From an uncultured Lachnospiraceae bacterium (GTDB lineage Bacteria; Bacillota; Clostridia; Lachnospirales; Lachnospiraceae): a stretch of 64,000 nucleotides of DNA. The stretch spans positions 964-64,963 of the forward strand of contig CATKXE010000006.1 of the NCBI GenBank assembly GCA_949840465.1, written 5' to 3'. Under the pieces are notes generated by a model. The model had not been told where the DNA came from. It was given only the letters and a program-made list of their open reading frames with translations, and did not search any database. Of the stretch, positions 8,731 through 60,333 are shown one piece after another; position 1 is the stretch's first letter; every line of letters begins with the position of its first letter. The translations under genes were made by a program, and so were the position numbers.

Positions 8731-8775
8731 CAGGCTTTTGACCACTTCAAACACATTGTCTTTTTATGCAATACA

Positions 8776-16370: not shown

Positions 16371-16401
16371 AACACTCTATTCTCCTTACATTCTAATCTT
16401 C

Positions 16402-17728: not shown

Positions 17729-17747
17729 GTCCCGCTCCTTCGTTTCC

Positions 17748-18626
17748 TTAATATCTCTTCTTTTCCTTTAACTCCTGATACATTCCAAGATAATTTTCAT
17801 AGCGGCTTCTGTGGATCATGCCTTCCTCCACAGCCGCCTTCACCGCGCATCCCGGTTCGTGTACATGATCACACCCACTATATCGGCAGTGTTCTTCAAA
17901 ATCAGCAAACTCCCGAAAAAAGTGTTTCAGTTCTTCTTTTTCAAAATCGTCCACATAGAGGGAACCAAACCCAGGCGTATCTATAATATAGCTTCCTTCT
18001 TCAATCTTGATCAGCTCTGAATGCCGGGTGGTATGTCTGCCTCTCGCGATTTTCTTACTGATGCTGCCAGTCTCCATCCGTACCTCAGACTGGAGGAGAT
18101 TGATCAGCGAAGACTTCCCCACCCCGGAAGGTCCGGCAATAGCTGTCGTCTTTCCCCGGAGCAGTTCCTTCACAGGCTCGATATTTTCCTGCGTAAGCGC
18201 GCTGGAGAGCAGCAACGGATATCCGCATCCACTGTAGACCTCCTTTAAATGCGCCATTTCCTTCTGGGTGGCAATATCCTTTTTATTAAAACAGAGCACC
18301 GCCGGAATCCCTTTTCTCTCCATCATTACAAGAAACCGATCCAATAGATGAAAATGAGGTTTGGGATCTGTCACTGCGAATACCACCAATGCCTGATCAA
18401 TATTCGCCACAGCAGGGCGCACCAATTCATTTTTTCTCGGCAGGATACGCTCAATGTTCCCCTCTTTCTTCTCTTCATCCAACACGGCCATGGAGACCAG
18501 ATCTCCGACCAGAGGCTTCATTTTTTCTTTTCGGAATATTCCCTTTGCCTTACACTCATAAAGGCCGGATTCTACCACGTAAACGTAGTAGAATCCGGCG
18601 ATCCCTTTTATAATCTTTCCCTCCAT
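17748..18626 (-). CDS. rsgA: ribosome small subunit-dependent GTPase
   Basis: FNKKD, GPSGVGKSSLIN, GRHTTRH, DTPGF, zinc finger CRYSGCDHVHEPGC. Confidence 0.96.
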   Translation of the reverse strand: MEGKIIKGIAGFYYVYVVESGLYECKAKGIFRKEKMKPLVGDLVSMAVLDEEKKEGNIERILPRKNELVRPAVANIDQALVVFAVTDPKPHFHLLDRFLVMMERKGIPAVLCFNKKDIATQKEMAHLKEVYSGCGYPLLLSSALTQENIEPVKELLRGKTTAIAGPSGVGKSSLINLLQSEVRMETGSISKKIARGRHTTRHSELIKIEEGSYIIDTPGFGSLYVDDFEKEELKHFFREFADFEEHCRYSGCDHVHEPGCAVKAAVEEGMIHRSRYENYLGMYQELKEKKRY

Positions 18627-18638
18627 ACAACCTCCGGA

Positions 18639-41214: not shown

Positions 41215-41949
41215 ATGCGGACAAAGGATACGTTTACTTCGGAAAAGAAAAAAATCAGCCAGCTCAGGGGCCGGAAGAAACTGCAGTATCTATGGGACTA
41301 TTACAAGCTGCCTTTTGTAATCGCATGTATCTTTCTGTACATTTTGGGCTATGTGCTTTACGGGCATTTCACACAGAAAAAGAATATCCTCTATGCCGCT
41401 TTTATCAATGTAGCTCCCAGCGGCGCCCTGACTGAAACGCTAAGCGACGGCTTTCTGATTTCCCGGGATATAGATTTAAAGAAAAATGCCTTTTATCTCT
41501 ATACCGGCCTTTATCTTACCAGTGACGAGTCAAACCCTTACCATGAATACACCTATGCCTCCCGCATCAAGCTGGTTGCAGCCATCGACGCGGAAACGGC
41601 GGATATCGTCCTGATGGATCAGGAGGCATTTGACGCTCTTTCCCAGAACGGGTATCTATGTAATATGGAAGAATTTTTATCGGAGGCTGACCCGGAACTC
41701 TATCGAGATTGCCAGAATTTGCTACGGGCAAATAGTGTAATCCTGGAAGAGAACGCTGAAGAATCTGCTTTAGATGGTTCAGTCTCCTGCACAGCGGAAA
41801 CAGAAAGATACCCCATGGCGCTGGATATCTCACAAACTCCTTTACTGGAAGACTCCGGTTTCACAGAACCAGTATTTCTTGGCGTCATAAAAAATACCCC
41901 GCGGAAAAAAGACGCCGCGGAATATGTCCGATATGTCTGCCTGTATTAA
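41215..41949 (+). CDS. hypothetical membrane-anchored protein following YesL
   Basis: KLQYLWDYYKLP, one TM helix, binding-protein-like C-terminal part. Confidence 0.65.
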   Translation: MRTKDTFTSEKKKISQLRGRKKLQYLWDYYKLPFVIACIFLYILGYVLYGHFTQKKNILYAAFINVAPSGALTETLSDGFLISRDIDLKKNAFYLYTGLYLTSDESNPYHEYTYASRIKLVAAIDAETADIVLMDQEAFDALSQNGYLCNMEEFLSEADPELYRDCQNLLRANSVILEENAEESALDGSVSCTAETERYPMALDISQTPLLEDSGFTEPVFLGVIKNTPRKKDAAEYVRYVCLY

Positions 41950-42860
41950 GGAAAACATAAAAATAACCTGTGCATCACGAGACGGCACAATGCGCTGGCC
42001 GTCTCTTTTTTACGTCCGTATTTTTTTGAAAGAATGTACCTCCTCCTCTCCTTCCAGAGAGCAATGCGCCTCCGGGATTTCCTGTCACAAATCCCTGTGA
42101 TTTCCGCAATCTCATCCACCAGCCTTTCATAATCCCGGTACTTCTTTTCCTCTTCTTCCTGCGTCAGTTCTTTTCTGGAATGGCTCCCCTCCCTGACGCA
42201 AACGCCATACAGCGGTTCCGGGATTGTGGGGCACTTATAGCGGTACATGTAGGGCAGCAGCATCTGGAAATTCTGCCCTACAGGGTATTCCGGGATCTTC
42301 CTGTCGGGATATATTTCAAAAAAACTCTCTGACTTTATCATGTAACATCCGCAGCAGACAAAGGTCTTTACTTCCAAAATATCCCAGAACAGCTCTTCCT
42401 TTGACAGATCCCCTCTCTGCTCTTCTGCCTTTCTTGTTTCCCCTGTTTTGGAATCAAAATAATAGGATACTGAACGGACGCACTGATACTGCGGATACTG
42501 TTTTAAAAACTCCACCCTTTTCTCCACAGATTCCGGCTCCAATACATCATCGCTGTCCGGCCAGATCAGGTATTCCCCGGACACAAAGGGAAGCCCCCGA
42601 TTGATGGCCGAAGACGCGTTCTGATGCGCTGCCTGTACAATCCGGTATCCATATCCCTTTGCCGCAAACCTTTCCCGGTACTGTTTGGCAGCCTGGATGG
42701 TCCGGTCTGTGGAGCCGTCGTCCACCAGGATCATCTCCATCTTCGGATAGGTCTGGTTCAATATGGAATCCAGCATCCTGGGCAGGTGCTCCTCCCCGTT
42801 GTATACCGGGGTGACTACCGTAACCAGCCCGGTTATCCATTCCTGTCTTTTTTTACACAT
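41946..42860 (-). CDS. GT2 glycosyltransferase
   Basis: VVTPVYN, LVDDGSTD, WPDSDD. Confidence 0.92.
   Translation of the reverse strand: MCKKRQEWITGLVTVVTPVYNGEEHLPRMLDSILNQTYPKMEMILVDDGSTDRTIQAAKQYRERFAAKGYGYRIVQAAHQNASSAINRGLPFVSGEYLIWPDSDDVLEPESVEKRVEFLKQYPQYQCVRSVSYYFDSKTGETRKAEEQRGDLSKEELFWDILEVKTFVCCGCYMIKSESFFEIYPDRKIPEYPVGQNFQMLLPYMYRYKCPTIPEPLYGVCVREGSHSRKELTQEEEEKKYRDYERLVDEIAEITGICDRKSRRRIALWKERRRYILSKKYGRKKETASALCRLVMHRLFLCFP
41979..42011 (+). terminator. intrinsic terminator of the lacI-yesL operon, embedded in the convergent GT2 gene
   Basis: gagacggc-N11-gccgtctc-tttttt. Confidence 0.6.
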
Positions 42861-42952: not shown

Positions 42953-44074
42953 TCATGCCCTTCCGGAACGGAATATCCCACCAGTCCCTGCCGCAGCATC
43001 CACCAGCCTGATAAACAGAGGAAACGGCAGCATTGCATACAATGCCATGAACAGCCCGCGCACTTTTGGCCGGCCGGAAGGCTTAAGAAGGCGCGGCTGC
43101 AGGATCTCCTCCTTCTTACATTCAAACCAGTCCATCCGGTCCCGAATCTGCTCCCAAACTTCCTTCGCCCTGGCAGTATGGATGAGAACTATCGAATTTC
43201 CCATGCCATCGTCCATATCCGGCCTGACATGCCCTATCCCCCAGAAATCTCCTATGGTGAAATCGCTGTCCCTGTCCACTGTACAGAACTTGCATTCATA
43301 ACAGGACGGCCGCAGAATCAGATTGGCAAAATACATCCTGCAGAATCTATCCTGATAAACAGAACCCGCATATTCCCTGCCGCCGATAACAGAAACGCAC
43401 GTATGTCCTGAATCGCTCGCCCGCTTATCCCGGAACGAAAAATCCGTCATTTTCCCATGGTGCGTTCCCTCCAGATATTTTACATAATCTCTCCAGATTC
43501 CAGGCGAAGGAACCCCGTAGCAGACCAGATCCACAAGAAACAGCCCCTCATAATCCCCTCCAAGAAACAGCCTGATTGCCTGCGTCTGGCAGGGCGTACC
43601 GCAGAATAAGACCGGACGTTTTTCCTTCAAGTGCTGCTCCACACGAAGGAAAATCCCTTCCAGACTGCTCTGTACATATTTCGTCCTTTTCAGCTTTTCC
43701 AATTCCTCTGGATTTCCGGCTTGCCTGTGGACGACCCTCATATCGCTGTCATAGCCAGCCCCGTATACTACGCCGTTTCGCTCCAATACATATTCTGCCA
43801 GGATTGGGAATACGCCGCCGGAAGAGCTGCCGTATCTCACCTGTTCCTCCTTTGCTTTCGCGCCCAAATATCGGTTCACACAATTTTTCAAAGCGGAATT
43901 TTTTATCGGGCAGATCTTTTTGCATTTACCACAACAGATACAGACGGACGCATCCATATGAGGATAAGCAAAGCCTTCCCGATCCTGCCCCATATGGATG
44001 GCATGAACCGGGCAGACAGCCGCGCAGGCCCCACACCCGCAGCATTCCTCTTTTTTGAAAAAAAATCCATACAT
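42953..44074 (-). CDS. 4Fe-4S ferredoxin domain plus F420 hydrogenase beta-subunit (FrhB)-like protein
   Basis: CCGCGACAAVCP, CICCGKCKKICP, SSSGG, TKYVQS, GTPCQ, DLVCYGVPSP, LRPSCYEC, DFTIGDFWG. Confidence 0.88.
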   Translation of the reverse strand: MYGFFFKKEECCGCGACAAVCPVHAIHMGQDREGFAYPHMDASVCICCGKCKKICPIKNSALKNCVNRYLGAKAKEEQVRYGSSSGGVFPILAEYVLERNGVVYGAGYDSDMRVVHRQAGNPEELEKLKRTKYVQSSLEGIFLRVEQHLKEKRPVLFCGTPCQTQAIRLFLGGDYEGLFLVDLVCYGVPSPGIWRDYVKYLEGTHHGKMTDFSFRDKRASDSGHTCVSVIGGREYAGSVYQDRFCRMYFANLILRPSCYECKFCTVDRDSDFTIGDFWGIGHVRPDMDDGMGNSIVLIHTARAKEVWEQIRDRMDWFECKKEEILQPRLLKPSGRPKVRGLFMALYAMLPFPLFIRLVDAAAGTGGIFRSGRA

Positions 44075-44075
44075 C

Positions 44076-45215
44076 TTACCCACACTCTCCCGACAGAATT
44101 TGCTCAATAAACCGGATGGAACGTGCCTTCTCTTCTTCCAGAAGCGCTCTTACATGCCCCCAGTCAATCGCTTCCATCATCTTCCCCTTTTTTGGCGTCC
44201 TTCCTCTTTCTACCAGACGGTTCTCCAGCCCAAGCTTTTCCACAAGATTCTCCAGCCGTGCATTTTTATTGCTGTGGCTGAACACCAGAAAATTCTTTTC
44301 CATAATAACAGAAAATGCCGTGCCATGAAAAGAATTCGTAACAACACAGCCTGCATTCTTAAAAAAACCGATGTACTCGGAAGGACCTGCCTCTATTTCC
44401 AGATCCACCCGTCCCGTCCTTTGCCGGAGCCACGGCATAGAAAGCTGGACCACCCTCTTCTCCAACTCCGCAGAAAGCCCCTGTAAGTACTGAACCATCT
44501 GCTCATTGTATTCCGTATAAATAAACAGGATATAATCCTGCCGGTCAGGAAGCTTCATGACCTGTTCCCATCTTTTTCGTTCCAGCAAGAGTGCAGGATC
44601 CAAAACATCCGTCACATTTCCATGAAAGAACTTTTTCACAAAGGATACCGCGCCTTTCTCCCTCAGGGAGATTACTGAAAAATTATGGCTCACTGCTTCC
44701 GAAAATTCCTCCTCATATTCTGCTGGCAGCGAGTCCCCCCCAAAGCTGGCTCCGTATGCTGCCCATCTGCAATCCCCTTTTTCCTTTACATTTCCCATAT
44801 AGGCATCATCCAGCCCGACGGTAATCTCCGGGTTCCACACCTGGTCGCTTCCCACAAAGATACAGGAATATTTTTCAAAGTGCAGCCTGTCAGCCTTTCT
44901 GACAGCGCACTTTCCCGTAAGATACCGATTCCGGAACGCCTTCATATTCTTTCTTCTTCTCAAAAAACTACGAAAATGACATATCTGGTTAAAAAACGTG
45001 CCCCACTCAAAAATATATTTGATTTTATTTCCCTTTTCCCTGCCTGTAACCGGAAAGAACCAGTATCTTCCCTCTAACCGGACGGGTGCGTAAGGGAGGA
45101 TCTCCACCTTCGTCCTTCCCGCCTTTTCCAAACAGTTTTTCAGCGCATAAGCCTGAAGCATCGCCCCATAATCGTCCGCCCAATAAAATGTAAGTATTCC
45201 TGTCATAATCTGCAT
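44076..45215 (-). CDS. polysaccharide pyruvyl transferase family protein
   Basis: GILTFYWADDYGAMLQAYAL, VGSDQVWN, YGASFG, SLRE, DPALL, VTNSFHGTAFS. Confidence 0.9.
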   Translation of the reverse strand: MQIMTGILTFYWADDYGAMLQAYALKNCLEKAGRTKVEILPYAPVRLEGRYWFFPVTGREKGNKIKYIFEWGTFFNQICHFRSFLRRRKNMKAFRNRYLTGKCAVRKADRLHFEKYSCIFVGSDQVWNPEITVGLDDAYMGNVKEKGDCRWAAYGASFGGDSLPAEYEEEFSEAVSHNFSVISLREKGAVSFVKKFFHGNVTDVLDPALLLERKRWEQVMKLPDRQDYILFIYTEYNEQMVQYLQGLSAELEKRVVQLSMPWLRQRTGRVDLEIEAGPSEYIGFFKNAGCVVTNSFHGTAFSVIMEKNFLVFSHSNKNARLENLVEKLGLENRLVERGRTPKKGKMMEAIDWGHVRALLEEEKARSIRFIEQILSGECG

Positions 45216-45307: not shown

Positions 45308-45952
45308 TTACTCTTCTACAGAATTCAGGAACGCCACATAGTCAAAATCATCCAGATACCGCCGTTTTAAAAACTGCTTTTTAAAATTCAGTATCATTCC
45401 AAGCTTTTCTTCTGTCTCGAATCCTTTTATGTAACAGGCGGATGATATTTCCGGGTACTCCACATGCGTAAATATCACTTTATTTTTATATGGCAGCTTA
45501 TCAAAACGCCGAAGGGTCTCATAAGTGCAGTCTCCTCTTTCTGTTCCCATAAAAAACAAGTTATCCCAATGAATCCTCTTTTTCCTCTCCTCCCATTTCC
45601 GGACGCCTTCCTGAAAACTCTCATAATGTACAAAATCGATTTTTATATCTCCCAGCATACCGGACGGACAGTCTTTTTCTTCCTTTAACTCCACAATCTC
45701 TTTCTCAAGATACCATTTCAGATTCTCCGCAAATTTAACGAAATCATTCATTCCTATGGTCAGGTTAATCGTCGGAGAAAGAAACCGCATACCCAGATCA
45801 TAATAAATAAATGTCCCGACACAGTTACAGGCTATTATGGAAAAATCCGGATTTTTTAGTCTTTTACGCTTCCTTTTCTTATACATAAGCCACTCACGAT
45901 ACACAAACAGTTCTATCAGATTCCTTACAAACCTCAAAATTTTCTTACTCAT
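45308..45952 (-). CDS. DUF1919 family protein
   Basis: FSIIACNCVG, SPTINL, IDFVHY, WEERKKRIHWDNLF. Confidence 0.8.
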   Translation of the reverse strand: MSKKILRFVRNLIELFVYREWLMYKKRKRKRLKNPDFSIIACNCVGTFIYYDLGMRFLSPTINLTIGMNDFVKFAENLKWYLEKEIVELKEEKDCPSGMLGDIKIDFVHYESFQEGVRKWEERKKRIHWDNLFFMGTERGDCTYETLRRFDKLPYKNKVIFTHVEYPEISSACYIKGFETEEKLGMILNFKKQFLKRRYLDDFDYVAFLNSVEE

Positions 45953-46027: not shown

Positions 46028-47722
46028 CTATTTTACCTGAACCAGTTTCCGATCCTGTATCCGATATATGATATCGCATTCATTCGCAAGGCTCATATGG
46101 TGTGTCACGATCAGCAAGGTCTTATTTTTCCTCACTTCCCGGATCGAGTCAATCACCGCTTTCTCCGTTTCCATATCCAGCGCGGCAGTCGCCTCATCCA
46201 TAATCAACAGTTCAAAATCCTTATACAGCGCCCTCGCCAGCGCAATCCGTTGGCGCTGTCCTCCTGAAATGGTTGTTCCCCTTTCACTGATCAACGTATG
46301 GATCCCTTCCGGCATCCCTGCAACCTCCTCCCACACATGGGCGCATTTCAAACATTCCTCCACTCTCGCGTCATCAATTTCAGACTCAGCCGCAAAAAGC
46401 GCCACATTATTCCGGACTGTTTCCCCGTTCATATACACAGTCTGAGGAATATAGCTGACAATCTCTCCTATGTTTGCCTTACAGCTTCCATTTCCATCCG
46501 TCCGGCTGACGATATCATACTCATCATACAAGATTTCTCCCTCCTGCGGTTTTAAAAGCCCTATAACCAACGATAGAAGGGTCGTTTTTCCTATACCGGA
46601 AACCCCGATGACCGCCACGGAACTTCCAGCCGGAATCTCCATGGAAGCATTTTGAAATATGTTTTCCTTCCTGGGATATCCGAATGTCAGATTCCTGACA
46701 AATATGCCTTTACCAAATGTAATGTTTTTCTGCCTGATTCCCTGGATTTTCTTTTCTTCCTCTTTTAATTCCGTATATCGGAGCATGCATTCTTCCAATG
46801 CTTCATAAGATTTTTTCGAATATCTTATATTGTTCATCCCACCTGTAATCGTATGAGCAGCCGACATGGCCCTGCTTAATACAGAGACATAGGCCGTGAT
46901 TGGTATCAGCGCCGCCATATCGGGTCCCACTAAAAAAATAGCGGCAAATATAACAAGCATGATTGCCTTCATCCACAGGTTCATAATCACTTTGATAAAA
47001 TCATTTTTAAAGCTATATTCTCCCTGCATCCGGGCATAATCCATACTTGCGTCATAATATTTCCGGAGAACAGGCTCAATATCCCCCGCAATCTTCATTT
47101 CCTCAAAAATACCGTATCCCAGGGTAATCTGCGAATTTGCTTTGATCTCATAACTCCTGCTCTTTTCTCCATAGACTTCCATCCGCACACAATACCATGC
47201 AAAAATCCCCGCGGTCAGGACGATGATGAGCATTCCGCCCAGCAGCCCGAACCAGGATGAAATCGCGATCAGGATTATGATATATCCCAGCACGATCAAT
47301 AGATGCGTCCCCACTTCCATATAACTTAAGAGCATACCGATACTCTTTGTTGTATCGCTGCGTACCATTGCCAGCGCCTGCATGACACTTTTCTGGTTAT
47401 GGTGTTCCAGATCCTCTTTTGCAAATAGTTCATAGACTTTCACAGACAATTTTTGCGCGCCATGATATAGAAAATGATTTGATATCCTGCATCGGTGCAA
47501 TTCTAATGCCATCTGAATCAGAAAGAGAAACAAAATCATCCAGACCTGAAGCTTCCCGACTGAGGGATGGTCTTCTAAAACCGCCGGAATCCAGAAAACG
47601 GTCACTACAAAACTAACGATTTCTGTCACAGCGCTCAGAATTCCCAAAACAGCTATACTCTTCCAGTTTTTCTGCTCTTCTTTCCCCAGAATCCCTGTCA
47701 AATATTTAAAAACCTCTATCAC
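46028..47722 (-). CDS. ABC half-transporter (TMD+NBD), PglK/HetA-like glycolipid flippase candidate
   Basis: About six TM helices, Walker A GVSGIGKTT, signature ISGGQRQR, DEATAALD. GTG start chosen from its GGAGG RBS. Confidence 0.85.
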   Translation of the reverse strand: MIEVFKYLTGILGKEEQKNWKSIAVLGILSAVTEIVSFVVTVFWIPAVLEDHPSVGKLQVWMILFLFLIQMALELHRCRISNHFLYHGAQKLSVKVYELFAKEDLEHHNQKSVMQALAMVRSDTTKSIGMLLSYMEVGTHLLIVLGYIIILIAISSWFGLLGGMLIIVLTAGIFAWYCVRMEVYGEKSRSYEIKANSQITLGYGIFEEMKIAGDIEPVLRKYYDASMDYARMQGEYSFKNDFIKVIMNLWMKAIMLVIFAAIFLVGPDMAALIPITAYVSVLSRAMSAAHTITGGMNNIRYSKKSYEALEECMLRYTELKEEEKKIQGIRQKNITFGKGIFVRNLTFGYPRKENIFQNASMEIPAGSSVAVIGVSGIGKTTLLSLVIGLLKPQEGEILYDEYDIVSRTDGNGSCKANIGEIVSYIPQTVYMNGETVRNNVALFAAESEIDDARVEECLKCAHVWEEVAGMPEGIHTLISERGTTISGGQRQRIALARALYKDFELLIMDEATAALDMETEKAVIDSIREVRKNKTLLIVTHHMSLANECDIIYRIQDRKLVQVK

Positions 47723-47802
47723 ATCGTTTTCCTCCCAAATGCTGAAAATGTCGTTACATTTTTTTGCAGTCAAATCCTCTCTAAAACGTTTTTTATTTTT
47801 CA

Positions 47803-48795
47803 CTAACCCAAATTTCCGGTAAATCTCTGCTTCATTGTCCACAGTATTCTAAACGGCGGGAAATAGAAACATCCATAAAACAGCAACTTTGTTCTTCCTG
47901 GGAGCTGCCTGTATAAAGGGTGCCTGATTTCCGTCATCATCATCCTTCTGAAATGATAACAGCTTTCTCTGTCCTTTTTTCTTTTCGCTGCCAGATACTC
48001 TGATAAGATTCCCCATACGATCTTATTTCCCCACTTTAGCGCCCAACGATCGTGTCCCATATCATATTCCTGAATTTTTATCCTTTCACATACCCGGAAA
48101 AACTGGAAATTTTTATCCCCCTCATCTGAATGCATCAGACTGCCCTGGCGCATCCTGTAAAAATACCCTGCGTCATCCAAATAAGCCATCCTCATCCCTT
48201 TACATGCCAGGCTGTGTATAAATATGGTATCTTCTCCTCTTAAAAGACCCTCGTCAAACTTTCGTTTTTCTATCATATCCCGGCGTATCATTTTGCCTCC
48301 GATTCGGGATAATTCGTGTCCGAATTTACAATGGAACCATTCTCCCGACTCCTCTTTCTCTCCAATTTTCCACGTCCCCTTTAACTCTTCTTCGGACATC
48401 CTCCTGGCTTCCTGTTCCATTTTCAAATCATCAAGTTGTATACAGATACAGAATGCCAGGTCTATATGGTGTGATTCCGCCTGCCGGACATATTGTTCCA
48501 ACAGGCATGGATGGAGCATGTCGTCACTGTCCAGAAAAAAAATATATTTGCCGGACGCTTCTTCCAATCCCCTGTTCCTCGCAGACGACACCCCTTTTCT
48601 TTCCTGGCTTAATATCTTTATTCTTCTGTCATGTAAGCGGAACTCCCTGCATATATCCAGACTCTGATCCGTGGAGCCGTCATCTACCACCAGAATCTCC
48701 AGACAATGATAAGTCTGGCTGAGCACCGATTCAAGGCATTGCATAATATAGGCTTCCGCATTATACATTGGGATAATTACTGATACCTTTATCAT
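47803..48795 (-). CDS. GT2 glycosyltransferase
   Basis: VIIPMYN, VVDDGSTD, SARNRG, FLDSDD. Confidence 0.92.
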   Translation of the reverse strand: MIKVSVIIPMYNAEAYIMQCLESVLSQTYHCLEILVVDDGSTDQSLDICREFRLHDRRIKILSQERKGVSSARNRGLEEASGKYIFFLDSDDMLHPCLLEQYVRQAESHHIDLAFCICIQLDDLKMEQEARRMSEEELKGTWKIGEKEESGEWFHCKFGHELSRIGGKMIRRDMIEKRKFDEGLLRGEDTIFIHSLACKGMRMAYLDDAGYFYRMRQGSLMHSDEGDKNFQFFRVCERIKIQEYDMGHDRWALKWGNKIVWGILSEYLAAKRKKDRESCYHFRRMMMTEIRHPLYRQLPGRTKLLFYGCFYFPPFRILWTMKQRFTGNLG

Positions 48796-48819
48796 ACGTC
48801 CTCCAACTATTGTTTAATT

Positions 48820-49962
48820 TCAAAATAATATAACCGCTTTTTCCATCCACTCCAGAATCCGGTAACTTATTTTACATATCACTTCCACCGTTCCATAACA
48901 TCTGATCCTGTAAAAGAACAAAAGCACCCTTCTCGGCATGGGACCCATTTTCCGGTTGTACCTCATCGCTTCATTATAAATTTTATTTTTCTGCATTGCC
49001 CGGCATAGCCTGCGGTTTTCTAATCTGTTTCTGGGACTATATGGATGAAAAATTCCTTTGATCAGAACATCCGCCATGCCAAAAAGCACCATATTGTAAT
49101 ATGCCCTTTCCATTCGATGAAAGAGGCCAAACCTGTGCAGCATATTCTTCAAACATTTCTGGTATTTCAGGTTATTTTTCAGAAAGCCCCTATGAAACCT
49201 GTGCATCGCCGAGTCCGGCCGTATCTGTACAAAACAGGCTGTTGTCTGCATATATGCAAAAGACTCTGTATTCATAAAATACTCCAGATTAAAAAGCCGG
49301 TCTTCCCCCAGCACAATATCCTCCGGAAAACGAATGGAACCCCTGTCTATCACGGATTTTCTGTACGCCTTGGCACAGGGAGAAATCAGGTTTGTGCCGC
49401 CGCCTTTTACCAGTTGTCTGCCATACAGCAAATTTTCAGCCAGTTTCAGCTTATTCTTTTCCTGATGCCTCATCGGACGAAGTCCGCCTGTCCCGCAGGG
49501 GCATGGATTGCGGAATGCCTTTTGGGTATCCCTTATCGGACGCAGCCCGCCCGCTCCAGTGAAACATGCATTGCGAAAGTTACTTTTCTCGTCTTTTTTC
49601 TTCAGCAACGCATAATCGAAAATCAGAAGGTCACAACGGTGGTTTTCTTTTCGCAGAATCCAATTAAAAAAATCAGCAGAGATTACATCATCCGAATCTA
49701 CAAATACAATCCATTCTCCCCGGCTCTCATCGATCCCCCTGTTTCTCGCGGCAGATACTCCCTGATGTTCCTGATCGAAAAACCTGACGCGGCTGTCGCT
49801 CCTGGAATACCTCCTGCAGATTTCAGGGCTGGAATCACTGGAACCGTCATTTACTAAAATCAATTCAAAATCCTGGCAGGAAGAATGCAATACAGAATCA
49901 ATACATCTTCCCAAATACCCTGCCGTATTATAAACAGGCACAATGACTGAAATCATGAACAT
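48820..49962 (-). CDS. GT2 glycosyltransferase carrying an in-frame repeat insertion
   Basis: VIVPVYN, FVDSDD, GEDRLFN. Internal 21-aa-period duplication FRNACFTGAGGLRPIR / FRNPCPCGTGGLRPMR. Confidence 0.9.
   Translation of the reverse strand: MFMISVIVPVYNTAGYLGRCIDSVLHSSCQDFELILVNDGSSDSSPEICRRYSRSDSRVRFFDQEHQGVSAARNRGIDESRGEWIVFVDSDDVISADFFNWILRKENHRCDLLIFDYALLKKKDEKSNFRNACFTGAGGLRPIRDTQKAFRNPCPCGTGGLRPMRHQEKNKLKLAENLLYGRQLVKGGGTNLISPCAKAYRKSVIDRGSIRFPEDIVLGEDRLFNLEYFMNTESFAYMQTTACFVQIRPDSAMHRFHRGFLKNNLKYQKCLKNMLHRFGLFHRMERAYYNMVLFGMADVLIKGIFHPYSPRNRLENRRLCRAMQKNKIYNEAMRYNRKMGPMPRRVLLFFYRIRCYGTVEVICKISYRILEWMEKAVILF
49473..49578. repeat. 63-bp-period palindromic repeat element, intragenic copy
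   Basis: tcggacgaagtccgcctgtcccgcaggggcatggattgcggaatgccttttgggtatcc aligns without gaps to 7066-7125. A second partial unit starts exactly 63 bp later, at 49536. Confidence 0.85.
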
Positions 49963-49973
49963 CCTCTTTCCCA

Positions 49974-51002
49974 TTATCCCGGCAAAATCACCCTGCCAAC
50001 GGTCTTTGCCAGAAGCCGCCCAAGTTCCGGCGCTTTCCTCACAACCCACATTGCAGCCTTTTGATAGCCCGCAGTCTTTGGAGAGGCCATAAACAGATCT
50101 GCATACCGCTCCAATTCCTCCATACAGATCTTCCAGCTTTCACAGTCCGGTGAGAAATCCGCCTTTTTACACCGCAATGCCTCTTCATACCAAAAGGCCA
50201 TGAACCGGAATGCATACTGTAATTGATGCGCCGTCAATTTTCCATTGCCGGCCTGCTCGCCTGTCTGCAGGATCCAGTTCATTGCCTGGCATAGTTCATC
50301 CACGGTACGTGTCTGCGACGTCAGGCTTCCCGCGTGTTTACAGTAGAATACGCCATAGAAGGGGATCACCTCCATCCATCCGTCACATCGGCTGAGGTAT
50401 CTGCATATAAATACAAAATCTTCAAACTCCGCCAATTCTTCCGGAAACTCTACCAGCAGGCATCCCTGCCTGTCCAGAATTTTTTCACGGCGGAACAAAA
50501 CCGGGCAGACGCTCATCAAAATCTGTTCCCACATCACTAATTCCAAAGCCGTCTCAGGACATTGACGGTACTGCCTCTTCAACGGATACTGCCAGTGCGC
50601 CGGATTTCCATTTTTATCGCAGATCTGCCGCCCGCAGGCCGCCAGATCATTTCCTTTCAGAAGGCTTTCGGCCAGCCGCTCGATCATCTGCGGGTGCAGC
50701 ATGTCATCTGCGTCCATAAAACCGATAAACTGTCCTTTCGCAAGCTGAAGCCCGGCATTGCGCGCGCACGCAGGGCCGCCATGCGATATATTGATTAATT
50801 CGATTACCGGCCCGGCTTTCTCTTTTGTTTTCTCTATAAACTGCCTGACAATCTCCTCCGTCCTGTCAGTAGAGCCGTCGTTCACCACAATCACCTCATA
50901 ATTACGGTAAGTAGAAGCAAGAATACTTTCTATACAGCGCCCGATCCTCTGTTCCTGCTGATACGCCGGTATAATGATTGAAACGAATCTATCCATCTTC
51001 AT
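49974..51002 (-). CDS. GT2 glycosyltransferase
   Basis: IIIPAY, VNDGSTD, ARNAG, FMDADD. Confidence 0.92.
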   Translation of the reverse strand: MKMDRFVSIIIPAYQQEQRIGRCIESILASTYRNYEVIVVNDGSTDRTEEIVRQFIEKTKEKAGPVIELINISHGGPACARNAGLQLAKGQFIGFMDADDMLHPQMIERLAESLLKGNDLAACGRQICDKNGNPAHWQYPLKRQYRQCPETALELVMWEQILMSVCPVLFRREKILDRQGCLLVEFPEELAEFEDFVFICRYLSRCDGWMEVIPFYGVFYCKHAGSLTSQTRTVDELCQAMNWILQTGEQAGNGKLTAHQLQYAFRFMAFWYEEALRCKKADFSPDCESWKICMEELERYADLFMASPKTAGYQKAAMWVVRKAPELGRLLAKTVGRVILPG

Positions 51003-54914: not shown

Positions 54915-56576
54915 TTACGTTTCCTCTGCCGGAACCCCTGACAGCATCTCCCTGTTTTTTTCTTCATTGCCCGCAGGAGAACAATCCTTTGCCCGTATGA
55001 CAAAATAATAGGTTTCCCCGGCATCCAGATTCCTGACCACCGCCTCATAGGGGTATGTATCCTCTCCCGCACCGTAACCGTAACCTTCTCCCACCTCTGG
55101 AACCAGCTCTGTCTTCTGCGCATTTTCCAGATCAGCATCCTCTTCAAAATCAAATGGCTCTTTCTGATAATAAAGGGTATAAGCCACTCCGCTCTTATCA
55201 ACAGCCACATCCCACCGCACGATCATGCCGTTTTCAACCGGTTCCGTCTGTCCGATTCCAACCCGCGGTTTGGGTTCCTCATAGATGGAATCGTTATGGA
55301 CGCTGCTCCAGACCGGCGGGAGAAGATCCTTCTCCTCCTCATGATCCAGTACAAAATCATTTACCATCAACAGCGCGCCATCTGTAATGTAATGTGAAAA
55401 GCCAGCTCCATTTTGAGCCTGATCCATATCCTCCATGAGAATATCCAATCCTGCTTCTGAGTCTCCAAGCAGCGTCTCTTTTAACCGGTACTCCTCTGGT
55501 CCTTCCGCGTATCCCAGAGACAGCACCTTAAATCCATCCGGGCGGTTGGCTTCCGCTGTAATTTTAGGCGCATATACATTTTTGTTTTCTTCAAAATACC
55601 CTTCATAGTACAAAATTTCACTGGACGAATCCAGCATATAACTTTCATACAGAAGAAAATCAATATATTTTCCAGGCTCATAATCAAAATGCGGCAGATT
55701 ATAATTATAGAAAAAAAGCCCTCTGTTCTGCAGGACATATTTGTCTGCATACTCGTCTTTTAATCGTTTTATGAAATCCACCACTCCCGGCGCGGTCCAT
55801 TCAAACCTGGTTCTGGCCGGGTCGTCGTCATCCCTCGTATATTTGTTGGGCGCGCATGTATCGATTGTATCCAAAAACAGGCCGTCACAGCCCAGCCCCC
55901 GTCCATAGTCAGCGGTCAGTATTTCCCGGATTCCCGGTATCCTGTCCGCTCCGTCCATCAGCATATCGTTCAGTTCATCATACCAGGCCGGATCACCGAT
56001 ATTGGTATAAGCACAGCCAAAATTCGGGTTGAAGTCCGGTTTGCCGTCATGATCATTGTCATCCAGATAATAGGATGCGTACCCGTCTCCTTCCAGGGAA
56101 GCGCTGCCTGATAAATCCACATTGTCCAGGCTATCATCCCCCTCTTTACGCGGGTCAGTCCGCGGACCTGTCTGATTACCAGTAAACCGGCTGTCCTGCC
56201 TCATTTCCTCCGGGGTCATTCCCGCTGTCCTTAAATCCTCTCCCACAGACAGGTATCCTAAGACACAGGTTCCAGATTCCTGAATCTTCTGTACCTGTTC
56301 ACGGGTGATATTCCCACCCTTCGGATGCAGTATTGCAATATCATATTGCTGCATTTGTGTAATAAGGGCATCATTCAGCTCCCCATAGTAAATGATGTAT
56401 GAAGGATGGCCTTTTTGAACCTGGTCTTTTTGCTGTTCCGTCGCCGGTTTTTGGTCTGGTACCGATCGCTGTTCCATCAGACGAAAACACCCGCCCAACA
56501 AAAGAACCCCCATAAAAAGAAGGTTTCCAATCCTGAAGATTGTCCGATAGCTGATATGGATCTGCTTCTTTTTCAT
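54915..56576 (-). CDS. GH114/PelA-hydrolase-like endo-alpha-1,4-polygalactosaminidase with C-terminal FN3-like domain
   Basis: N-terminal TM/signal, IYYG, GYLSVGED, DGLFLDTID, QNRG, LLYES; tail YYFVIRAKD. Confidence 0.75.
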   Translation of the reverse strand: MKKKQIHISYRTIFRIGNLLFMGVLLLGGCFRLMEQRSVPDQKPATEQQKDQVQKGHPSYIIYYGELNDALITQMQQYDIAILHPKGGNITREQVQKIQESGTCVLGYLSVGEDLRTAGMTPEEMRQDSRFTGNQTGPRTDPRKEGDDSLDNVDLSGSASLEGDGYASYYLDDNDHDGKPDFNPNFGCAYTNIGDPAWYDELNDMLMDGADRIPGIREILTADYGRGLGCDGLFLDTIDTCAPNKYTRDDDDPARTRFEWTAPGVVDFIKRLKDEYADKYVLQNRGLFFYNYNLPHFDYEPGKYIDFLLYESYMLDSSSEILYYEGYFEENKNVYAPKITAEANRPDGFKVLSLGYAEGPEEYRLKETLLGDSEAGLDILMEDMDQAQNGAGFSHYITDGALLMVNDFVLDHEEEKDLLPPVWSSVHNDSIYEEPKPRVGIGQTEPVENGMIVRWDVAVDKSGVAYTLYYQKEPFDFEEDADLENAQKTELVPEVGEGYGYGAGEDTYPYEAVVRNLDAGETYYFVIRAKDCSPAGNEEKNREMLSGVPAEET

Positions 56577-56622: not shown

Positions 56623-58845
56623 TCATTCTTGTATGGTCAGACCAAGCTGTGAATTCGGATTTTGATGAATCATATAACATATGAATTCTTCGTCCTCATA
56701 ATAGATATTGGTTTCAACAGGATATATCTCACGAAACTCCTGATACCATGCATATACTTTTGAATTCAATACTGTCCGCATATCCCGGTCTATATAATTA
56801 TCAAAGGGGATCTCCAGATAAGATATTGACCGCCGCGCGGCCTCCCTGGAACTCTCCGGGCGTCCCTGAACATCAAAATTCCGGCAGGCATTTTCATTCT
56901 TCCTTGCCAGCCACGAAGGACCTCCATAAAAATATTTTGAATATACGACAGGCATTTTCTCTACACAAAGGAAAATATATTCTGTGGGAAGAACGTATTC
57001 TTTTTCCTCTATGTTCTGTACAAACGTAAAGATTTCTTCATGTATTCCTCCTTCTGTCAGTTGATATAAGCCTCCGTTCATCGATACGATCGTATAGGAA
57101 TATTGAGGAAATGTTTTCATAATTTTGTCTGTTACTAAAACCTCCGCCTGATAACGTCCTATCCACCAGTATGGATACTCATGAAAATCCGTCCGAAATG
57201 CCAGACAGTAAAGTGCACAGAAGCCCGCAAGCGCACCTGCGTTCATCACGCTTTGGCTCACTCCTGAACCTGCAAGGAAAAGCAGGAAATCCACTGCCAC
57301 ACCCAACATGCTGCAGATCCAGATCTGTATCAGGCCTGCAATTCGGTTGATCGCAACAAATTGCGGTAATCCCGCAGAAGGCGCCGCATACAAAAAAACA
57401 AAAATCACAGAAACTGCTATAAGAAAAAAATACCCCCCAGGCATTCCTTTGGCAAACAGGCTTTTTCTCTCCGGCTCCCTCTTTCTCTTATAATATAAAA
57501 GAAAACCGTACAGGCATAAGGCCGCAATGATCATGAGCGAAACAAACACGATGACCGATGCGCCTCTTTCTCCAAATAGATTCACATACCCATTCCTGTA
57601 GAACTCCCTGAGAAAACGGCCTGGGGATACAATCTCTGAGCCTTTCTCCACAGGTGTGTACGCCGTACTCTCACTGATTCCCTGAAAAGTACTGACTCCC
57701 CACCCCAGAGAACCTTCCGGCTCCATTCCCATATCATACGCCGCCAGCATCGGGACAATGCCTGCCTCTACACCGTACAGGACCGCCGCAGACAGAAACC
57801 CGATCCTCTTCATGGAACGCATTTTCCAGAAATATACCAGTACGGCAGCCAGACAGGCAAAAAAGGCCAGTATCGTCACATAGAAATGTATGGCAATCGT
57901 TGCCCCCACTCCGAATGACAGCAGCAAAAGATTTTCGTTTTGGAACCATTGCCCTGTCTCCCTTTCCTCCCTCAGAAACCGGATGAGGAACAGCGGACAG
58001 AGGAATACCAGATAAAGGCCAAATTCCTGCGGCAGCGTCCAGGTCATTCTTGAGAGTGAATCCAACGCTTTTTCTCCCATACCGTCGAAAAGCAGCCAGA
58101 CAGCCAGAACAAACAGGGGCGTAAAGCGGCATTGGAACACTTCTTTTTGCAGACAGTATGCTGCAAGCAGGAATGTCAGGCTATGAATCCCCGCCAAAAA
58201 GAGTATACAGCTATAAAGCCTCACTCCAAACAGACAGTTCATACTGTAGATAAAACAATGCATGGCTTCTGGATAAATGCCGTCTGAAAATATCTCTCCC
58301 TCCTGTAATCCAAGAATCCACTGATGGTGCGTAAACTGGTCGCTGCATCCATAAGAAAGGAACTGGAATGCTCCGTTGGAAAAGTATGCCATTCCAAACA
58401 GTACTGCGGCAGCCAAAAGAAAATACTGCATCATTTGATCCTGATAATTTCCGTAGAACTTTTTCCACTTCTTGCATACCGTATCCCATATCCGGGCGAA
58501 AAATAGTTTCCATCCGTATTTCCCCAACAGCAGATTCTCTGCCATAAGGCCAATCCCTGGATATCCCCGCTTTTTTCTCTTGAACAGAAATATTCCCGCA
58601 CTCATGATAAGGGGTCCATAAAAAAAGCCCCTCACGACCCAGACATTCAAAATATGGAACAACCCTGCCCCAAGAACCACCAGATTTACCAATACAATCT
58701 GTACGACAGAACAAAAAAGGAAACGAAATTCGAACCCTTTTCCTCTCAGATATTTATGAAAAATAATACCCGGCCAGATATAAAGCAAAGCTGCATATGC
58801 AGCAAAGACTTTCATATATTCCAGATACCAGTATATGTTATCCAC
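56623..58845 (-). CDS. multi-pass membrane protein, GT-C-like
   Basis: 740 aa with more than 12 hydrophobic segments, loop motif SDQFTHHQW...GIYPEAMH, soluble C-terminal domain. Confidence 0.55.
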   Translation of the reverse strand: MDNIYWYLEYMKVFAAYAALLYIWPGIIFHKYLRGKGFEFRFLFCSVVQIVLVNLVVLGAGLFHILNVWVVRGFFYGPLIMSAGIFLFKRKKRGYPGIGLMAENLLLGKYGWKLFFARIWDTVCKKWKKFYGNYQDQMMQYFLLAAAVLFGMAYFSNGAFQFLSYGCSDQFTHHQWILGLQEGEIFSDGIYPEAMHCFIYSMNCLFGVRLYSCILFLAGIHSLTFLLAAYCLQKEVFQCRFTPLFVLAVWLLFDGMGEKALDSLSRMTWTLPQEFGLYLVFLCPLFLIRFLREERETGQWFQNENLLLLSFGVGATIAIHFYVTILAFFACLAAVLVYFWKMRSMKRIGFLSAAVLYGVEAGIVPMLAAYDMGMEPEGSLGWGVSTFQGISESTAYTPVEKGSEIVSPGRFLREFYRNGYVNLFGERGASVIVFVSLMIIAALCLYGFLLYYKRKREPERKSLFAKGMPGGYFFLIAVSVIFVFLYAAPSAGLPQFVAINRIAGLIQIWICSMLGVAVDFLLFLAGSGVSQSVMNAGALAGFCALYCLAFRTDFHEYPYWWIGRYQAEVLVTDKIMKTFPQYSYTIVSMNGGLYQLTEGGIHEEIFTFVQNIEEKEYVLPTEYIFLCVEKMPVVYSKYFYGGPSWLARKNENACRNFDVQGRPESSREAARRSISYLEIPFDNYIDRDMRTVLNSKVYAWYQEFREIYPVETNIYYEDEEFICYMIHQNPNSQLGLTIQE

Positions 58846-58866: not shown

Positions 58867-60333
58867 TTAAAAATAGCCTGCTGCATCCGTCTCTTCATAA
58901 CGGTCCATTACTTTATTCGAAGGCATTTTTCCAACCGCATGTTTTAAAATCTGTCCCCCGCAGAAAACATGTCGATCCAGATTCCTTTCCAACCACCGCA
59001 GACGGAAAATGGCTGTCACAAACCCCGTCACAGCGGCCGCGAAAACTCCGATTCCAGCCCATAGATAAGGCAGGCGCACGGCAGCCATGCTTCCGGTGAG
59101 CATCGTCGCAAAAAACAATACCGAAGTCAAAAGCGCTCCCCACAAATCATTAAAATACTGTAGAAAAAGCATGGTTGAATACATGATGAACAGCGGGAAA
59201 TATCCTGCTGCCAGACAATAATAGAACTCCAGGACCAGGCCGCCGTATCCGACCCTCGGCAGGAAAATGACCACGATAAAATACAGAATCATGGAAATAA
59301 TAGACTGGATTCGTACCAAATTGACCAGTTCCTCAGACAACTGCCGGAACATCCTCTTTTTCGCAGTCTGGATATCCATCCACCGCCCGCCGATTACCGC
59401 TTCTGTGTAAGCCTTATAACGAGACCGAAAGCGCATCTCCACCCTGGAAATAAAAATAACAGACGCGGCAATATTGGTAAACATTGCAATACATGTTGCC
59501 ACATCATAAGGTTCTGCACAAACAAAACTTTTTGCCACGACAATCCGCAGTTCTGTCGTCCAGAACACAAAATTGTGGGTATACAGACCCAATACATATA
59601 AAAAATTGACAAAGATCAGCTGCCAGTATTTCCGAAAATACTGAAACACCGGCCGATACCTTCCGCTGTTCTCTGGAAAAAACTGTCGGATCTGTGCATA
59701 TTCCAGAACCGCAATGATGAGAAATCCCACACTCAGCCCGAAAAGCGAGCTAAAAGTCTGCTCCATACGCCCAAACCTGCGGATTCCAAGAGACGCCAGT
59801 ACGGCAGCCGTCATCCCGATCAAAAAAAACAAAGAGACTTTTTTGTAGTCTTTGCTGACAGAAAGAAAGGACATACAATACACCACCAGAATCAGGCTGA
59901 TATATCCGCAGAATCCAGTAAATACATAATATACCGGTACTTCTCCCATAAAATGTTCATGCAGGCAGAAGGGAATCCCAAGAGCGCATCCCGAGGCAGC
60001 CGTCATAAAAAGCCCCAGATAAAAACACGGAAGAATATCCTCATACCGCTCCTCATAAATGATATCGGACATATACCGTGAAATCACGGGTGTAAAAGGC
60101 GACACAACCAAAAATGAAAAAATAAACATATAAAGCACTGTGCAGGAATAGAGCTCTCTTGCCGCATAACCGGCCTCCTCAAAATTCAAAAGGGCGTGCA
60201 TCAGCATGACCGTCCCGAATACCACCAGCATGGGAGCTATCGTGACCACTGTACTGTAGAGGGCGCCGTACAAATTGCCTGCAATACTGTTTCTTCCATA
60301 GATCCTGTTCAGCTTAACTCCGATTCCGGCCAT
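58867..60333 (-). CDS. pelG: Pel polysaccharide transporter
   Basis: MAGIGVKL start, SRYMSDIIY, YDVATCIAMF, about 12 TM helices, directly downstream of pelF. Confidence 0.9.
   Translation of the reverse strand: MAGIGVKLNRIYGRNSIAGNLYGALYSTVVTIAPMLVVFGTVMLMHALLNFEEAGYAARELYSCTVLYMFIFSFLVVSPFTPVISRYMSDIIYEERYEDILPCFYLGLFMTAASGCALGIPFCLHEHFMGEVPVYYVFTGFCGYISLILVVYCMSFLSVSKDYKKVSLFFLIGMTAAVLASLGIRRFGRMEQTFSSLFGLSVGFLIIAVLEYAQIRQFFPENSGRYRPVFQYFRKYWQLIFVNFLYVLGLYTHNFVFWTTELRIVVAKSFVCAEPYDVATCIAMFTNIAASVIFISRVEMRFRSRYKAYTEAVIGGRWMDIQTAKKRMFRQLSEELVNLVRIQSIISMILYFIVVIFLPRVGYGGLVLEFYYCLAAGYFPLFIMYSTMLFLQYFNDLWGALLTSVLFFATMLTGSMAAVRLPYLWAGIGVFAAAVTGFVTAIFRLRWLERNLDRHVFCGGQILKHAVGKMPSNKVMDRYEETDAAGYF

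Follow-up and report, generated by a model that had tools for sequence, protein, structure and literature searches.

A pyruvyltransferase-family enzyme paired with an FrhB-like flavoprotein in a Lachnospiraceae polysaccharide locus: a candidate pathway to lactyl ethers

Background

Reports of lactic-acid ethers of sugars, the glycolactilic acids, go back to the 1970s and concern Klebsiella capsules and O antigens of Shigella and Escherichia coli, as well as polysaccharides of Butyrivibrio, mycobacteria and cyanobacteria. Stack and co-workers reportedly described 1-carboxyethyl sugars in Butyrivibrio exopolysaccharide in 1988; our literature search on the Butyrivibrio sugars returned metabolomics papers only. 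The lactyl ether of MurNAc is made by MurA and MurB, by enolpyruvyl transfer and subsequent reduction, and the nitroreductase-fold domain of FbiB reduces PEP-derived dehydro-F420-0. For sugar lactyl ethers other than muramic acid, no tested enzymes were found in the literature searched.

The window analysed here is a stretch of 64,000 nucleotides from an uncultured Lachnospiraceae bacterium. It contains a polysaccharide locus in which a gene of the pyruvyltransferase family (gene A) is followed by a gene encoding an FrhB-like iron-sulphur flavoprotein (gene B). The locus thereby raises the question of whether a pyruvyl transferase with a flavoreductase as its neighbour makes a pyruvate ketal or a lactyl ether.

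Results

Gene A (44076-45215, minus strand) encodes a PS_pyruv_trans protein (PF04230) of 379 amino acids, for which we propose a function as PEP:sugar enolpyruvyl (carboxyvinyl) transferase. Gene B (42953-44074, minus strand) encodes a 373-amino-acid protein with a 2x[4Fe-4S] ferredoxin domain and an FrhB-family flavin/[4Fe-4S] oxidoreductase, the proposed enolpyruvyl-ether reductase. A sequence-only reading of the window had described two adjoining genes 1 bp apart, and two minus-strand open reading frames indeed fill the interval, with a single base between them (...GGG TAA g ATG...). In the open reading frame list, a TTG at 44107 is given as the start of gene B; the 373-amino-acid form instead begins at the ATG at 44074, which has a GGAG-like stretch on its 5' side. 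The distance of 1 bp is correct, because this ATG lies exactly one base past the stop codon of gene A and because the alignment of gene B homologues begins at residue 1 of the 373-amino-acid form. Judged by sequence, such spacing is compatible with translational coupling. Promoter and terminator scans of the gene array did not mark the operon boundaries informatively.

The association of the two proteins extends far beyond this genome. Among 127 gene B homologues from 120 loci, 109 have an A-type transferase that is fused, adjacent or within 5 kb: in 71 cases it is fused or adjacent and in 38 more it lies within 5 kb. Sixteen homologues have none; seven of these are at contig ends and two (L012 and L018) have a divergent PF04230 neighbour. 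The linkage spans phyla, with Bacillota, Bacteroidota, Actinomycetota and Spirochaetota among the named loci, and a plasmid search found a Pseudobutyrivibrio plasmid carrying two such pairs. In a sample of 201 genomes from the same order, 34 of 43 gene B homologues are linked to an A-type transferase by fusion, by adjacency or by a distance of no more than 5 kb; by our own rough estimate, chance linkage would be roughly 0.5%, given about 1.3 PF04230 matches per genome of about 2.7 Mb. Moreover, 85 of 120 long gene B homologues are fused to a gene-A-like PS_pyruv_trans domain, and the fusion exists in both orders (A-B in 62, B-A in 23). Fusions, neighbourhood and the transferase phylogeny described below show that A and B are functionally coupled and work together across hundreds of genomes.

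The same sample bears out the earlier statement that pyruvate ketals need no reductase: PF04230 proteins are present in 179 of the 201 genomes and the gene B reductase in 33. The majority of pyruvyl transferases lack such a reductase. The reductase scaffold is not exclusive to pyruvyl transferases either, because B-type domains are also fused to GT2 glycosyltransferases (23 protein clusters) and to DUF1919 proteins (P0069 and P0083), and some distant gene B homologues adjoin a hexapeptide acyltransferase together with a radical SAM protein, a DegT aminotransferase or an AMP-ligase.

Gene A is a PF04230 protein by domain and by fold. It matches the Pfam profile with an E-value of 5.8e-28 (99 bits, cut-off 25.3) over positions 2-280 of 280, and its AlphaFold model (pLDDT 92.8) has a GT-B-like fold of two Rossmann domains. 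A sequence search of the PDB gave no match at E <= 1, and Foldseek returned generic GT-B matches only. With VIA-align, the model superimposes on the yeast pyruvyltransferase Pvg1p (5ax7) with a Z-score of 16.3 and an rmsd of 3.4 Å over 257 residues; generic GT-B enzymes reach Z-scores of 15-19, and the Pvg1p match has the highest identity and one of the lowest rmsd values of the structure list. Thirty reductase-linked homologues of gene A share the invariant residues G122-S123-D124, R185, D206-P207 and F296-H297.

Gene A is also separate from the CsaB group. It scores 22.7 bits against the CsaB equivalog model TIGR03609 (NCBIfam), far below the cut-off of 213.1. In a phylogenetic tree of the transferases, a split with a local support of 100% sets 55 of 57 reductase-linked enzymes apart from 20 CsaB-like enzymes without reductase linkage and from WcaK of E. 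coli, a ketal former; the tree was built quickly with FastTree and its branches are long, and we picked the groups ourselves, the linked one with an HMM built from fusions and the unlinked one from the top Pfam scorers. Gene A is placed inside the reductase-linked clade, apart from CsaB-like genes of the same order, and fused and unfused transferases interleave.

The strongest alternative assigns ordinary ketal formation to gene A and a different redox step to gene B, such as one on a further substituent of this glycan or in the making of a keto- or deoxy-sugar; their joint inheritance would then mean no more than that both modify one repeat unit. All characterised PF04230 enzymes produce ketals, as is established and as reviewed (PMC6801904), and that review of pyruvylation leaves lactyl ethers and reductases aside. 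The fusions of B-type domains to GT2s and DUF1919 likewise suit such a separate role, as do the acyltransferases and the aminotransferase or aldo/keto reductase encoded next to them in some loci. To our knowledge, no sequence feature of PF04230 predicts enol-ether release. However, 85 of the 120 long forms are transferase fusions, in both orders, and the linked transferases have a clade of their own; therefore, consecutive steps on one group are indicated rather than loose co-tailoring. We regard separate jobs for the two enzymes as unlikely, and the capsules of Klebsiella argue in the same direction.

In Klebsiella, the K66 capsule locus has a gene annotated as 'coenzyme F420 hydrogenase' (HG203) together with the pyruvyltransferase gene wcqF, and the K22 and K37 loci have the pyruvyl transferase gene wclZ together with a 'nitroreductase' (HG127) (Pan et al. 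2015, PMC4616057). Across 79 K types, the 'nitroreductase' is found only in K22 and K37 and the 'coenzyme F420 hydrogenase' only in K66; each locus has a type-specific pyruvyl transferase, and transferase and reductase genes occupy consecutive rows of the homology-group list (PMC4616057). Four K types possess a pyruvyl transferase gene but lack ketal pyruvate, and K22, K37 and K66 are three of them (PMC4616057), which speaks against an ordinary ketal former in such pairs. For the K22/K37 polymer, the title of Parolis et al. 1988, as cited in PMC3857182, names 4-O-[(S)-1-carboxyethyl]-D-glucuronic acid. Correlating the gene pair with known lactyl-containing structures had been proposed from the sequence, and the outcome is partial: K22/K37 combine a pair with lactyl-glucuronic acid, K66 is only listed as lacking ketal pyruvate, and the correlation comprises two independent loci. 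Lactyl groups are also present in the O58, O69, O124, O146 and O150 antigens of E. coli. At the nucleotide level, blastn of the window's genes against E. coli genomes gave no match; Iguchi et al. 2015 contains nothing on the pair, and a literature search for O antigens with a coenzyme F420 gene found nothing relevant.

The same two-step logic could also serve another acceptor or product: an N-(1-carboxyethyl) group of the alanopine or carboxyethyl-lysine type, or a group from a different phospho-enol donor. The sequence does not tell which atom of the acceptor is modified, and N-(1-carboxyethyl) substituents are found in Providencia and Proteus polysaccharides (PMC10609480). However, the available structure-to-gene correlation, that of Klebsiella K22/K37, is with an O-ether, and neither an aminotransferase nor amino-sugar pathway genes were seen in the array of the window. 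Such variants are therefore improbable, and an O-linked lactyl ether is preferred.

Gene B is an FrhB-family protein with an N-terminal ferredoxin domain. The Pfam matches are Fer4/Fer4_7 at residues 8-57, FrhB_FdhB_N (PF04422) at residues 71-138 (32 bits, cut-off 22) and FrhB_FdhB_C (PF04432) at residues 155-313 (64 bits, cut-off 23.3). The ferredoxin-like domain (43904..44053, minus strand) contains two CxxCxxCxxxCP motifs and is the predicted site of electron entry; matches of PDB profiles to polyferredoxins and NuoI-type subunits are confined to it. The 26 homologues compared share twelve invariant cysteines: C11/14/17/21, C45/48/51/55 and C162/185/258/261. The last four are the probable ligands of one further [4Fe-4S] cluster. 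The model (pLDDT 91.3) finds FrhB-family subunits as its best Foldseek matches (8rja_E, E-value 5.5e-16, and 8riu_B), followed by Fsr (7np8), FrhB (4ci0_C and 6qii_B), 7bkb_E and HCAR (5dqr_F), with E-values ranging from 5.5e-16 to 1.8e-9; identity to the solved FrhB-family structures, HCAR included, is about 13-18%. The FrhB family includes ferredoxin-dependent enzymes: BciB, an 8-vinyl reductase that reduces a vinyl C=C bond, and HCAR.

Could gene B be a genuine F420-dependent enzyme, tied to F420 redox metabolism? Its fold and Pfam domains are those of FrhB, its database name is 'coenzyme F420 hydrogenase/dehydrogenase beta subunit', and the genome of the organism contains a lone CofE-like gene (PF01996, 195 bits). 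However, CofD was not found in this 93%-complete genome, nor was an FO synthase at the cofH cut-off (best match 50.8 bits versus 374); the family also has F420-independent members, for example HCAR, and the context of gene B is polysaccharide synthesis. With these gaps in F420 biosynthesis, gene B is unlikely to use the cofactor, which is probably unavailable in the cell; this says nothing against gene B being able to bind it. All in all, dependence on F420 is very improbable, and ferredoxin remains the preferred source of electrons.

The unit is larger than the pair to which the sequence-only reading had drawn attention: a DUF1919 gene, a downstream GT2 gene and a PglK-like ABC flippase gene accompany A and B in shuffled order. 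The DUF1919 protein (45308..45952, minus strand, 214 amino acids; PF08942, E-value 3e-67) is a recurrent member, with genes in 13 of 80 named loci and beside A/B in L046, L048-L050, L052, L056, L057, L059, L061, L065 and L079. PDB and PHROGs gave no functional lead; the sole solved relative in the PDB search is the uncharacterised 2g6t. The downstream GT2 glycosyltransferase (41946..42860, minus strand, 304 amino acids; PF00535) is the last gene of the array and has EpsE/TuaG/WcaA-like matches below the NCBIfam thresholds. Among close relatives, no partner of gene B is better conserved: homologues of 350-495 bits are present in nearly all of loci L045-L078, and in sixteen protein clusters the FrhB-like domain is fused to a GT2 of this type. 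The ABC half-transporter (46028..47842, minus strand, 604 amino acids; ABC_tran and ABC_membrane) has PglK as its best NCBIfam match (218 bits, under the cut-off), is probably a flippase of a lipid-linked glycan and is found near A/B in most of loci L045-L078. Directly upstream of it are three consecutive GT2 genes (47803..51002, minus strand; PF00535 in all three), and related loci also hold homologues of the 47803 and 48820 types. A module with GT2s of its own and a PglK-like flippase thus recurs in relatives, for instance in the cultured Schaedlerella arabinosiphila DSM 106076 (locus L045). The suggestion made from the sequence, that the pair adds negative charge to a Pel-type matrix, found no support in the analysis. 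Polysaccharide loci are mosaics of tailoring genes, and incidental operon packing of two functionally unrelated enzymes might be suspected, but given the fusions, the linkage kept across phyla and the clade structure, this is hardly conceivable.

Discussion

On balance, we think that A and B together are probably a synthase of lactyl (1-carboxyethyl) ethers that modifies a sugar in two steps, so that the surface glycan would carry lactyl ethers rather than pyruvate ketals; we hold this reading, which builds on analogy, with restrained confidence. The sequence-only reading had suggested a transferase and an iron-sulphur flavoreductase that act like MurA/MurB with ferredoxin-type electrons. That the two enzymes work together is established by fusion, neighbourhood and phylogeny, and the MurA/MurB-like route with ferredoxin-type electrons is the best-supported reading of the pair; the lactyl-ether chemistry itself we infer from mechanistic analogy and from Klebsiella. 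Our literature searches found no biochemistry or structural chemistry for this organism or any member of the gene B clade, and no paper that assigns a function to the pairing of pyruvyl transferase with F420 protein, reductase or lactyl group.

The pair must act in the cytoplasm, and we infer donor, enol-ether intermediate, reduction, electron donor and acceptor sugar as follows. The acceptor would be a sugar intermediate in the cytoplasm that is probably lipid-linked. Gene A would join C2 of PEP to one sugar hydroxyl with release of phosphate, and enzymes of its clade would halt at this stage, with an enolpyruvyl (carboxyvinyl) ether as product and no ring closure to a ketal. Gene B would receive electrons of low potential, for which reduced ferredoxin is the probable donor, at its two N-terminal [4Fe-4S] clusters; they would pass via the third cluster to the flavin, and the C=C bond of the enol ether would be reduced to give the lactyl ether. 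The downstream GT2 probably adds the modified sugar or the one after it, and the finished lipid-linked glycan would be flipped by the PglK-like ABC transporter.

If this is true, the enzymology of lactyl ethers becomes directly testable with a widespread pair that also exists as a single fused gene. It would provide a genomic marker that tells lactyl ethers from pyruvate ketals for the prediction of glycan structures and serotypes from sequence. The FrhB flavoprotein family would gain a new class of substrates, with the chemistry of MurA/MurB performed by non-homologous enzymes, and gut Lachnospiraceae would have a surface glycan with a stable, acid-resistant negative charge. A more speculative extension, which we consider doubtful, is that the module builds, on the cytoplasmic side, a short lactylated lipid-linked glycan which, once flipped, the large membrane protein encoded nearby at 56623-58845 grafts onto the Pel-type polymer encoded upstream. 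In that case, a Gram-positive gut commensal would have an acid-decorated (zwitterionic or anionic) Pel variant, its lactyl ether made by a ferredoxin-dependent pathway other than MurA/MurB.

How does the pair compare with known systems? The logic proposed for A/B is that of MurA/MurB: a PEP-derived enolpyruvyl ether is formed on a sugar hydroxyl, and flavin-dependent reduction of the C=C bond yields the lactyl ether. There is no homology, however, and Pfam scans of A and B gave only PF04230, Fer4-type and FrhB families. Gene A is a GT-B-like PF04230 protein whereas MurA has the EPSP-synthase fold; gene B is an FrhB-type iron-sulphur flavoprotein with a ferredoxin domain whereas MurB is NADPH-dependent (FAD_binding_4 / MurB_C). 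MurA acts on UDP-GlcNAc, A/B would act on a polysaccharide intermediate.

With the ketal-forming CsaB, WcaK and Pvg1p, gene A shares the Pfam family, the fold and presumably the donor PEP. Unlike CsaB and WcaK, it belongs to a separate, reductase-linked clade and is encoded 1 bp from a reductase for which ketal formation has no use. Gene B may be likened to BciB and HCAR, which combine the FrhB fold with FAD and Fe-S clusters, accept electrons from ferredoxin and are independent of F420; these two differ from gene B in their tetrapyrrole substrates and unrelated genomic context.

Like the window, the Klebsiella polysaccharide loci K66 and K22/K37 contain both a pyruvyl transferase and a flavoreductase, a likeness of annotation and gene content. 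They encode Gram-negative Wzy-type capsules, and their pairs were not assigned to lactyl-ether synthesis in the original work (PMC4616057). The K66 reductase has the same annotation as gene B, while that of K22/K37 differs from it in fold. The fused PS_pyruv_trans::ferredoxin::FrhB-like proteins contain the same two catalytic modules as A/B; in the window, unlike in these fusions, the modules are encoded by separate genes that are probably translationally coupled, within a module with DUF1919, GT2 and a PglK-like flippase.

Association of the pyruvyl transferase gene with an FrhB-like reductase gene

The ORF listing of the window has two minus-strand genes between positions 42953 and 45215. 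Gene A (44076-45215) encodes 379 amino acids with a full-length polysaccharide pyruvyl transferase domain (Pfam PF04230, E 5.8e-28); gene B (42953-44074) encodes 373 amino acids, in which two ferredoxin-type CxxCxxCxxxCP motifs (within residues 8-57) precede the N- and C-terminal FrhB_FdhB domains, all above the Pfam cut-offs. The ORF lister starts gene B at a TTG within gene A, but the junction reads TAA-g-ATG and alignments of gene B homologues begin at the ATG form: gene B thus starts one base past the stop codon of gene A, exactly the spacing that the sequence-only reading had assigned to the pair.

Fusions, neighbourhood, asymmetry and phylogeny concur in linking the two genes, and functional coupling is very likely. 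A phmmer search with gene A itself picks up a domain in 85 of the best 120 long gene B homologues, in the order A-B in 62 and B-A in 23 cases; as both orders occur, the fusion arose repeatedly. The neighbourhood survey took in 120 loci: 40 came from 201 blindly sampled genomes of the order, and the other 80, all named, came from species-representative genomes. A gene-A-type transferase is fused to, or sits immediately next to, 71 of the 127 gene B homologues at these loci; a further 38 have one within 5 kb and two have one farther away. Contig ends account for seven of the 16 homologues that have none; among the others, two (L012 and L018) have a divergent PF04230 gene directly beside the gene B homologue. 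PF04230 is present in 179 of the 201 genomes versus 33 for the reductase: most pyruvyl transferases operate without this reductase, as ketal formation would predict. In a quick FastTree phylogeny of 79 transferases, with some long branches and with groups of our own choosing (linked sequences found with an HMM built from the fusions, unlinked ones being the top Pfam scorers), a fully supported split separates 55 of 57 reductase-linked transferases from 20 CsaB-like genes without such a link and from WcaK of E. coli, which forms ketals; fused and split forms are interleaved. One genome of the same order (G162) has an unusual expansion, with five gene B homologues and 11 PF04230 matches (contigs C23, C29, C110, C166 and C244).

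The wider module

The unit extends beyond the pair. The roughly 35 named relatives that are closest (Lachnospiraceae, Oscillospiraceae and others) share one set of genes, whose order varies: A, B, a PglK-like ABC half-transporter (46028-47842 in the window), a GT2 of the type encoded at 41946-42860 and often DUF1919 (45308-45952). The set usually adjoins homologues of the window's 740-aa membrane protein, DUF4874/DUF4832 protein, GT4 and PpgS-like GT2. At the loci of the nearest gene A relatives in the sample (L046 and L065, 507-516 bits) the order is ABC, A, DUF1919, GT2, B; adjacency of A and B is therefore common, not obligatory. The GT2 of the 41946-42860 type is itself fused to an FrhB-like domain in 16 protein clusters (P0121, P0136-P0149 and P0152; about 682-690 aa), a second Rosetta-stone link beside the pyruvyl transferase, and FrhB-like domains are also fused to other GT2s (seven clusters) and to DUF1919 (two clusters).

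In the window, the module closes a minus-strand array of about 22 kb that starts with the Pel genes (identity confirmed for PelG, 58867-60537); its downstream limit is set by plus-strand genes that converge on it and encode a LacI-type regulator and a DUF624 protein. Three sizeable ORFs have little or no family assignment: the 740-aa membrane protein (56623-58845), whose homologues lie near A and B in many related loci, and a 244-aa ORF (41215-41949) have no convincing Pfam match, and a 553-aa ORF (54915-56576) has a sub-threshold one at most; an NCBIfam scan of the 553-aa and 740-aa ORFs found none.

Distant gene B homologues (about 28-36% identity) lie beside other tailoring enzymes at four loci: a hexapeptide acyltransferase and a radical SAM protein (L024:3619-6171), a DegT-type aminotransferase and a flippase (L038:3734-7637), an AMP-ligase (L011:6708-8012) and an aldo/keto reductase (L018:3951-4799). 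More than one kind of glycan tailoring may make use of the FrhB-like scaffold.

Predicted structures

The gene A model is confident (pLDDT 92.8) and GT-B-like; the yeast pyruvyltransferase Pvg1p (5ax7; Z 16.3, rmsd 3.4 Å) has the highest identity among the structures listed. CsaB is distant: gene A scores 22.7 bits with its family model, versus a cut-off of 213. The source genome has a second, very divergent PS_pyruv_trans match in a 458-aa ORF (G000:C71:3662-4048, locus L004), with no reductase detected nearby; in the tree its very long branch comes out on the reductase-linked side, an unreliable placement.

The gene B model, built with a 26-sequence alignment, is a confident fold too (pLDDT 91.3), and its top structural matches are without exception FrhB-family subunits, at 13-18% identity: F420-reducing formylmethanofuran dehydrogenase and CO dehydrogenase subunits (8rja_E, 8riu_B), the N-terminal half of F420-dependent sulfite reductase (7np8), FrhB (4ci0, 6qii), FdhB (7bkb_E) and plant 7-hydroxymethyl-chlorophyll reductase (5dqr). 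Twelve cysteines, eight in the ferredoxin domain plus C162, C185, C258 and C261, are invariant in homologues as distant as 28% identity, a pattern that would fit electron delivery to a flavin site through three [4Fe-4S] clusters. A hydrophobic C-terminal stretch, conserved in the alignment consensus, may retain the protein at the membrane.

Correlation with known glycan structures

Pan et al. (PMC4616057) list the gene products of 79 Klebsiella K types. The one 'coenzyme F420 hydrogenase' is in K66, its entry directly ahead of that for the K66-specific pyruvyltransferase wcqF, and the two 'nitroreductases' are in K22 and K37, entered with their specific pyruvyl transferase wclZ; four types, K8, K22, K37 and K66, have pyruvyl transferase genes without a pyruvylated capsule. 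The authors do not connect transferase and reductase to lactyl groups. K22 and K37 carry 4-O-[(S)-1-carboxyethyl]-D-glucuronic acid, according to the title of Parolis et al. 1988 as cited in PMC3857182. The correlation of such gene pairs with lactyl ethers is suggestive but thin, as K22 and K37 count as one locus. According to a 2026 preprint, Campylobacter species with a pyruvyl transferase in their pgl operons contain a 234-Da sugar, for which glucolactilic acid is the proposed identity. Lactyl groups also occur in E. coli O58, O69, O124, O146 and O150.

Plasmid pNP95 of the rumen bacterium Pseudobutyrivibrio xylanivorans MA3014 (NZ_CP043029.1) has two pyruvyl transferase/FrhB-like pairs in an EPS cluster (7879-10125 and 16169-18990). 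Annotation splits the first of these transferases into two pieces that overlap (7879-8328 and 8273-8932), possibly because of a frameshift. Lactyl sugars are reported from the Butyrivibrio group, and the plasmid pairs fit these at genus-group level only.

Proposed chemistry and comparison with known systems

The sequence-only reading had further suggested that the pair adds negative charge to Pel. Pel is synthesised by PelF and then exported, and pelF of the window is reported in the initial reading to have an in-frame stop; the enzymes of genes A and B are both cytoplasmic, their action has to be intracellular, and their module includes glycosyltransferases and a flippase of its own. The charge argument is therefore speculation; we found no tie of the modification to Pel itself, and the link is unsupported. 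A likely substrate would be a lipid-linked intermediate, given the cytoplasmic enzymes and the possible membrane retention of gene B.

No redox step is required to form a ketal, and still the transferases of this clade come tied to a low-potential reductase. The simplest chemistry would be a two-step route: PEP would add to one sugar hydroxyl with departure of phosphate, giving an enolpyruvyl ether, and reduction of its C=C would yield the 1-carboxyethyl (lactyl) ether. This lactyl-ether chemistry, already put forward from the sequence, is in our opinion the best reading of the pair and somewhat probable, though unproven. Electrons of the ferredoxin type, part of the same proposal, are supported by the ferredoxin domain of gene B. 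F420 is an unlikely cofactor, as neither CofD nor an FO-synthase-level match was detected in the source genome (93% complete). The genome has a lone CofE-like gene (G000:C8:40241-41377; L125:1477-2667, minus strand; PF01996 F420_ligase, 195 bits, 396-aa ORF); among 14 control genomes, only archaea have PF01996 matches.

There are precedents: MurA and MurB catalyse enolpyruvyl transfer followed by reduction, the nitroreductase-fold domain of FbiB reduces PEP-derived dehydro-F420-0, and BciB, a ferredoxin-dependent member of the FrhB family, reduces a vinyl group. Pyruvyl transferases and FrhB-type reductases are both of known kinds, here combined for a proposed MurA/MurB-like chemistry; new from this window are the split, translationally coupled gene pair, the division of the transferases into clades and the larger module, which includes GT2, DUF1919 and flippase.
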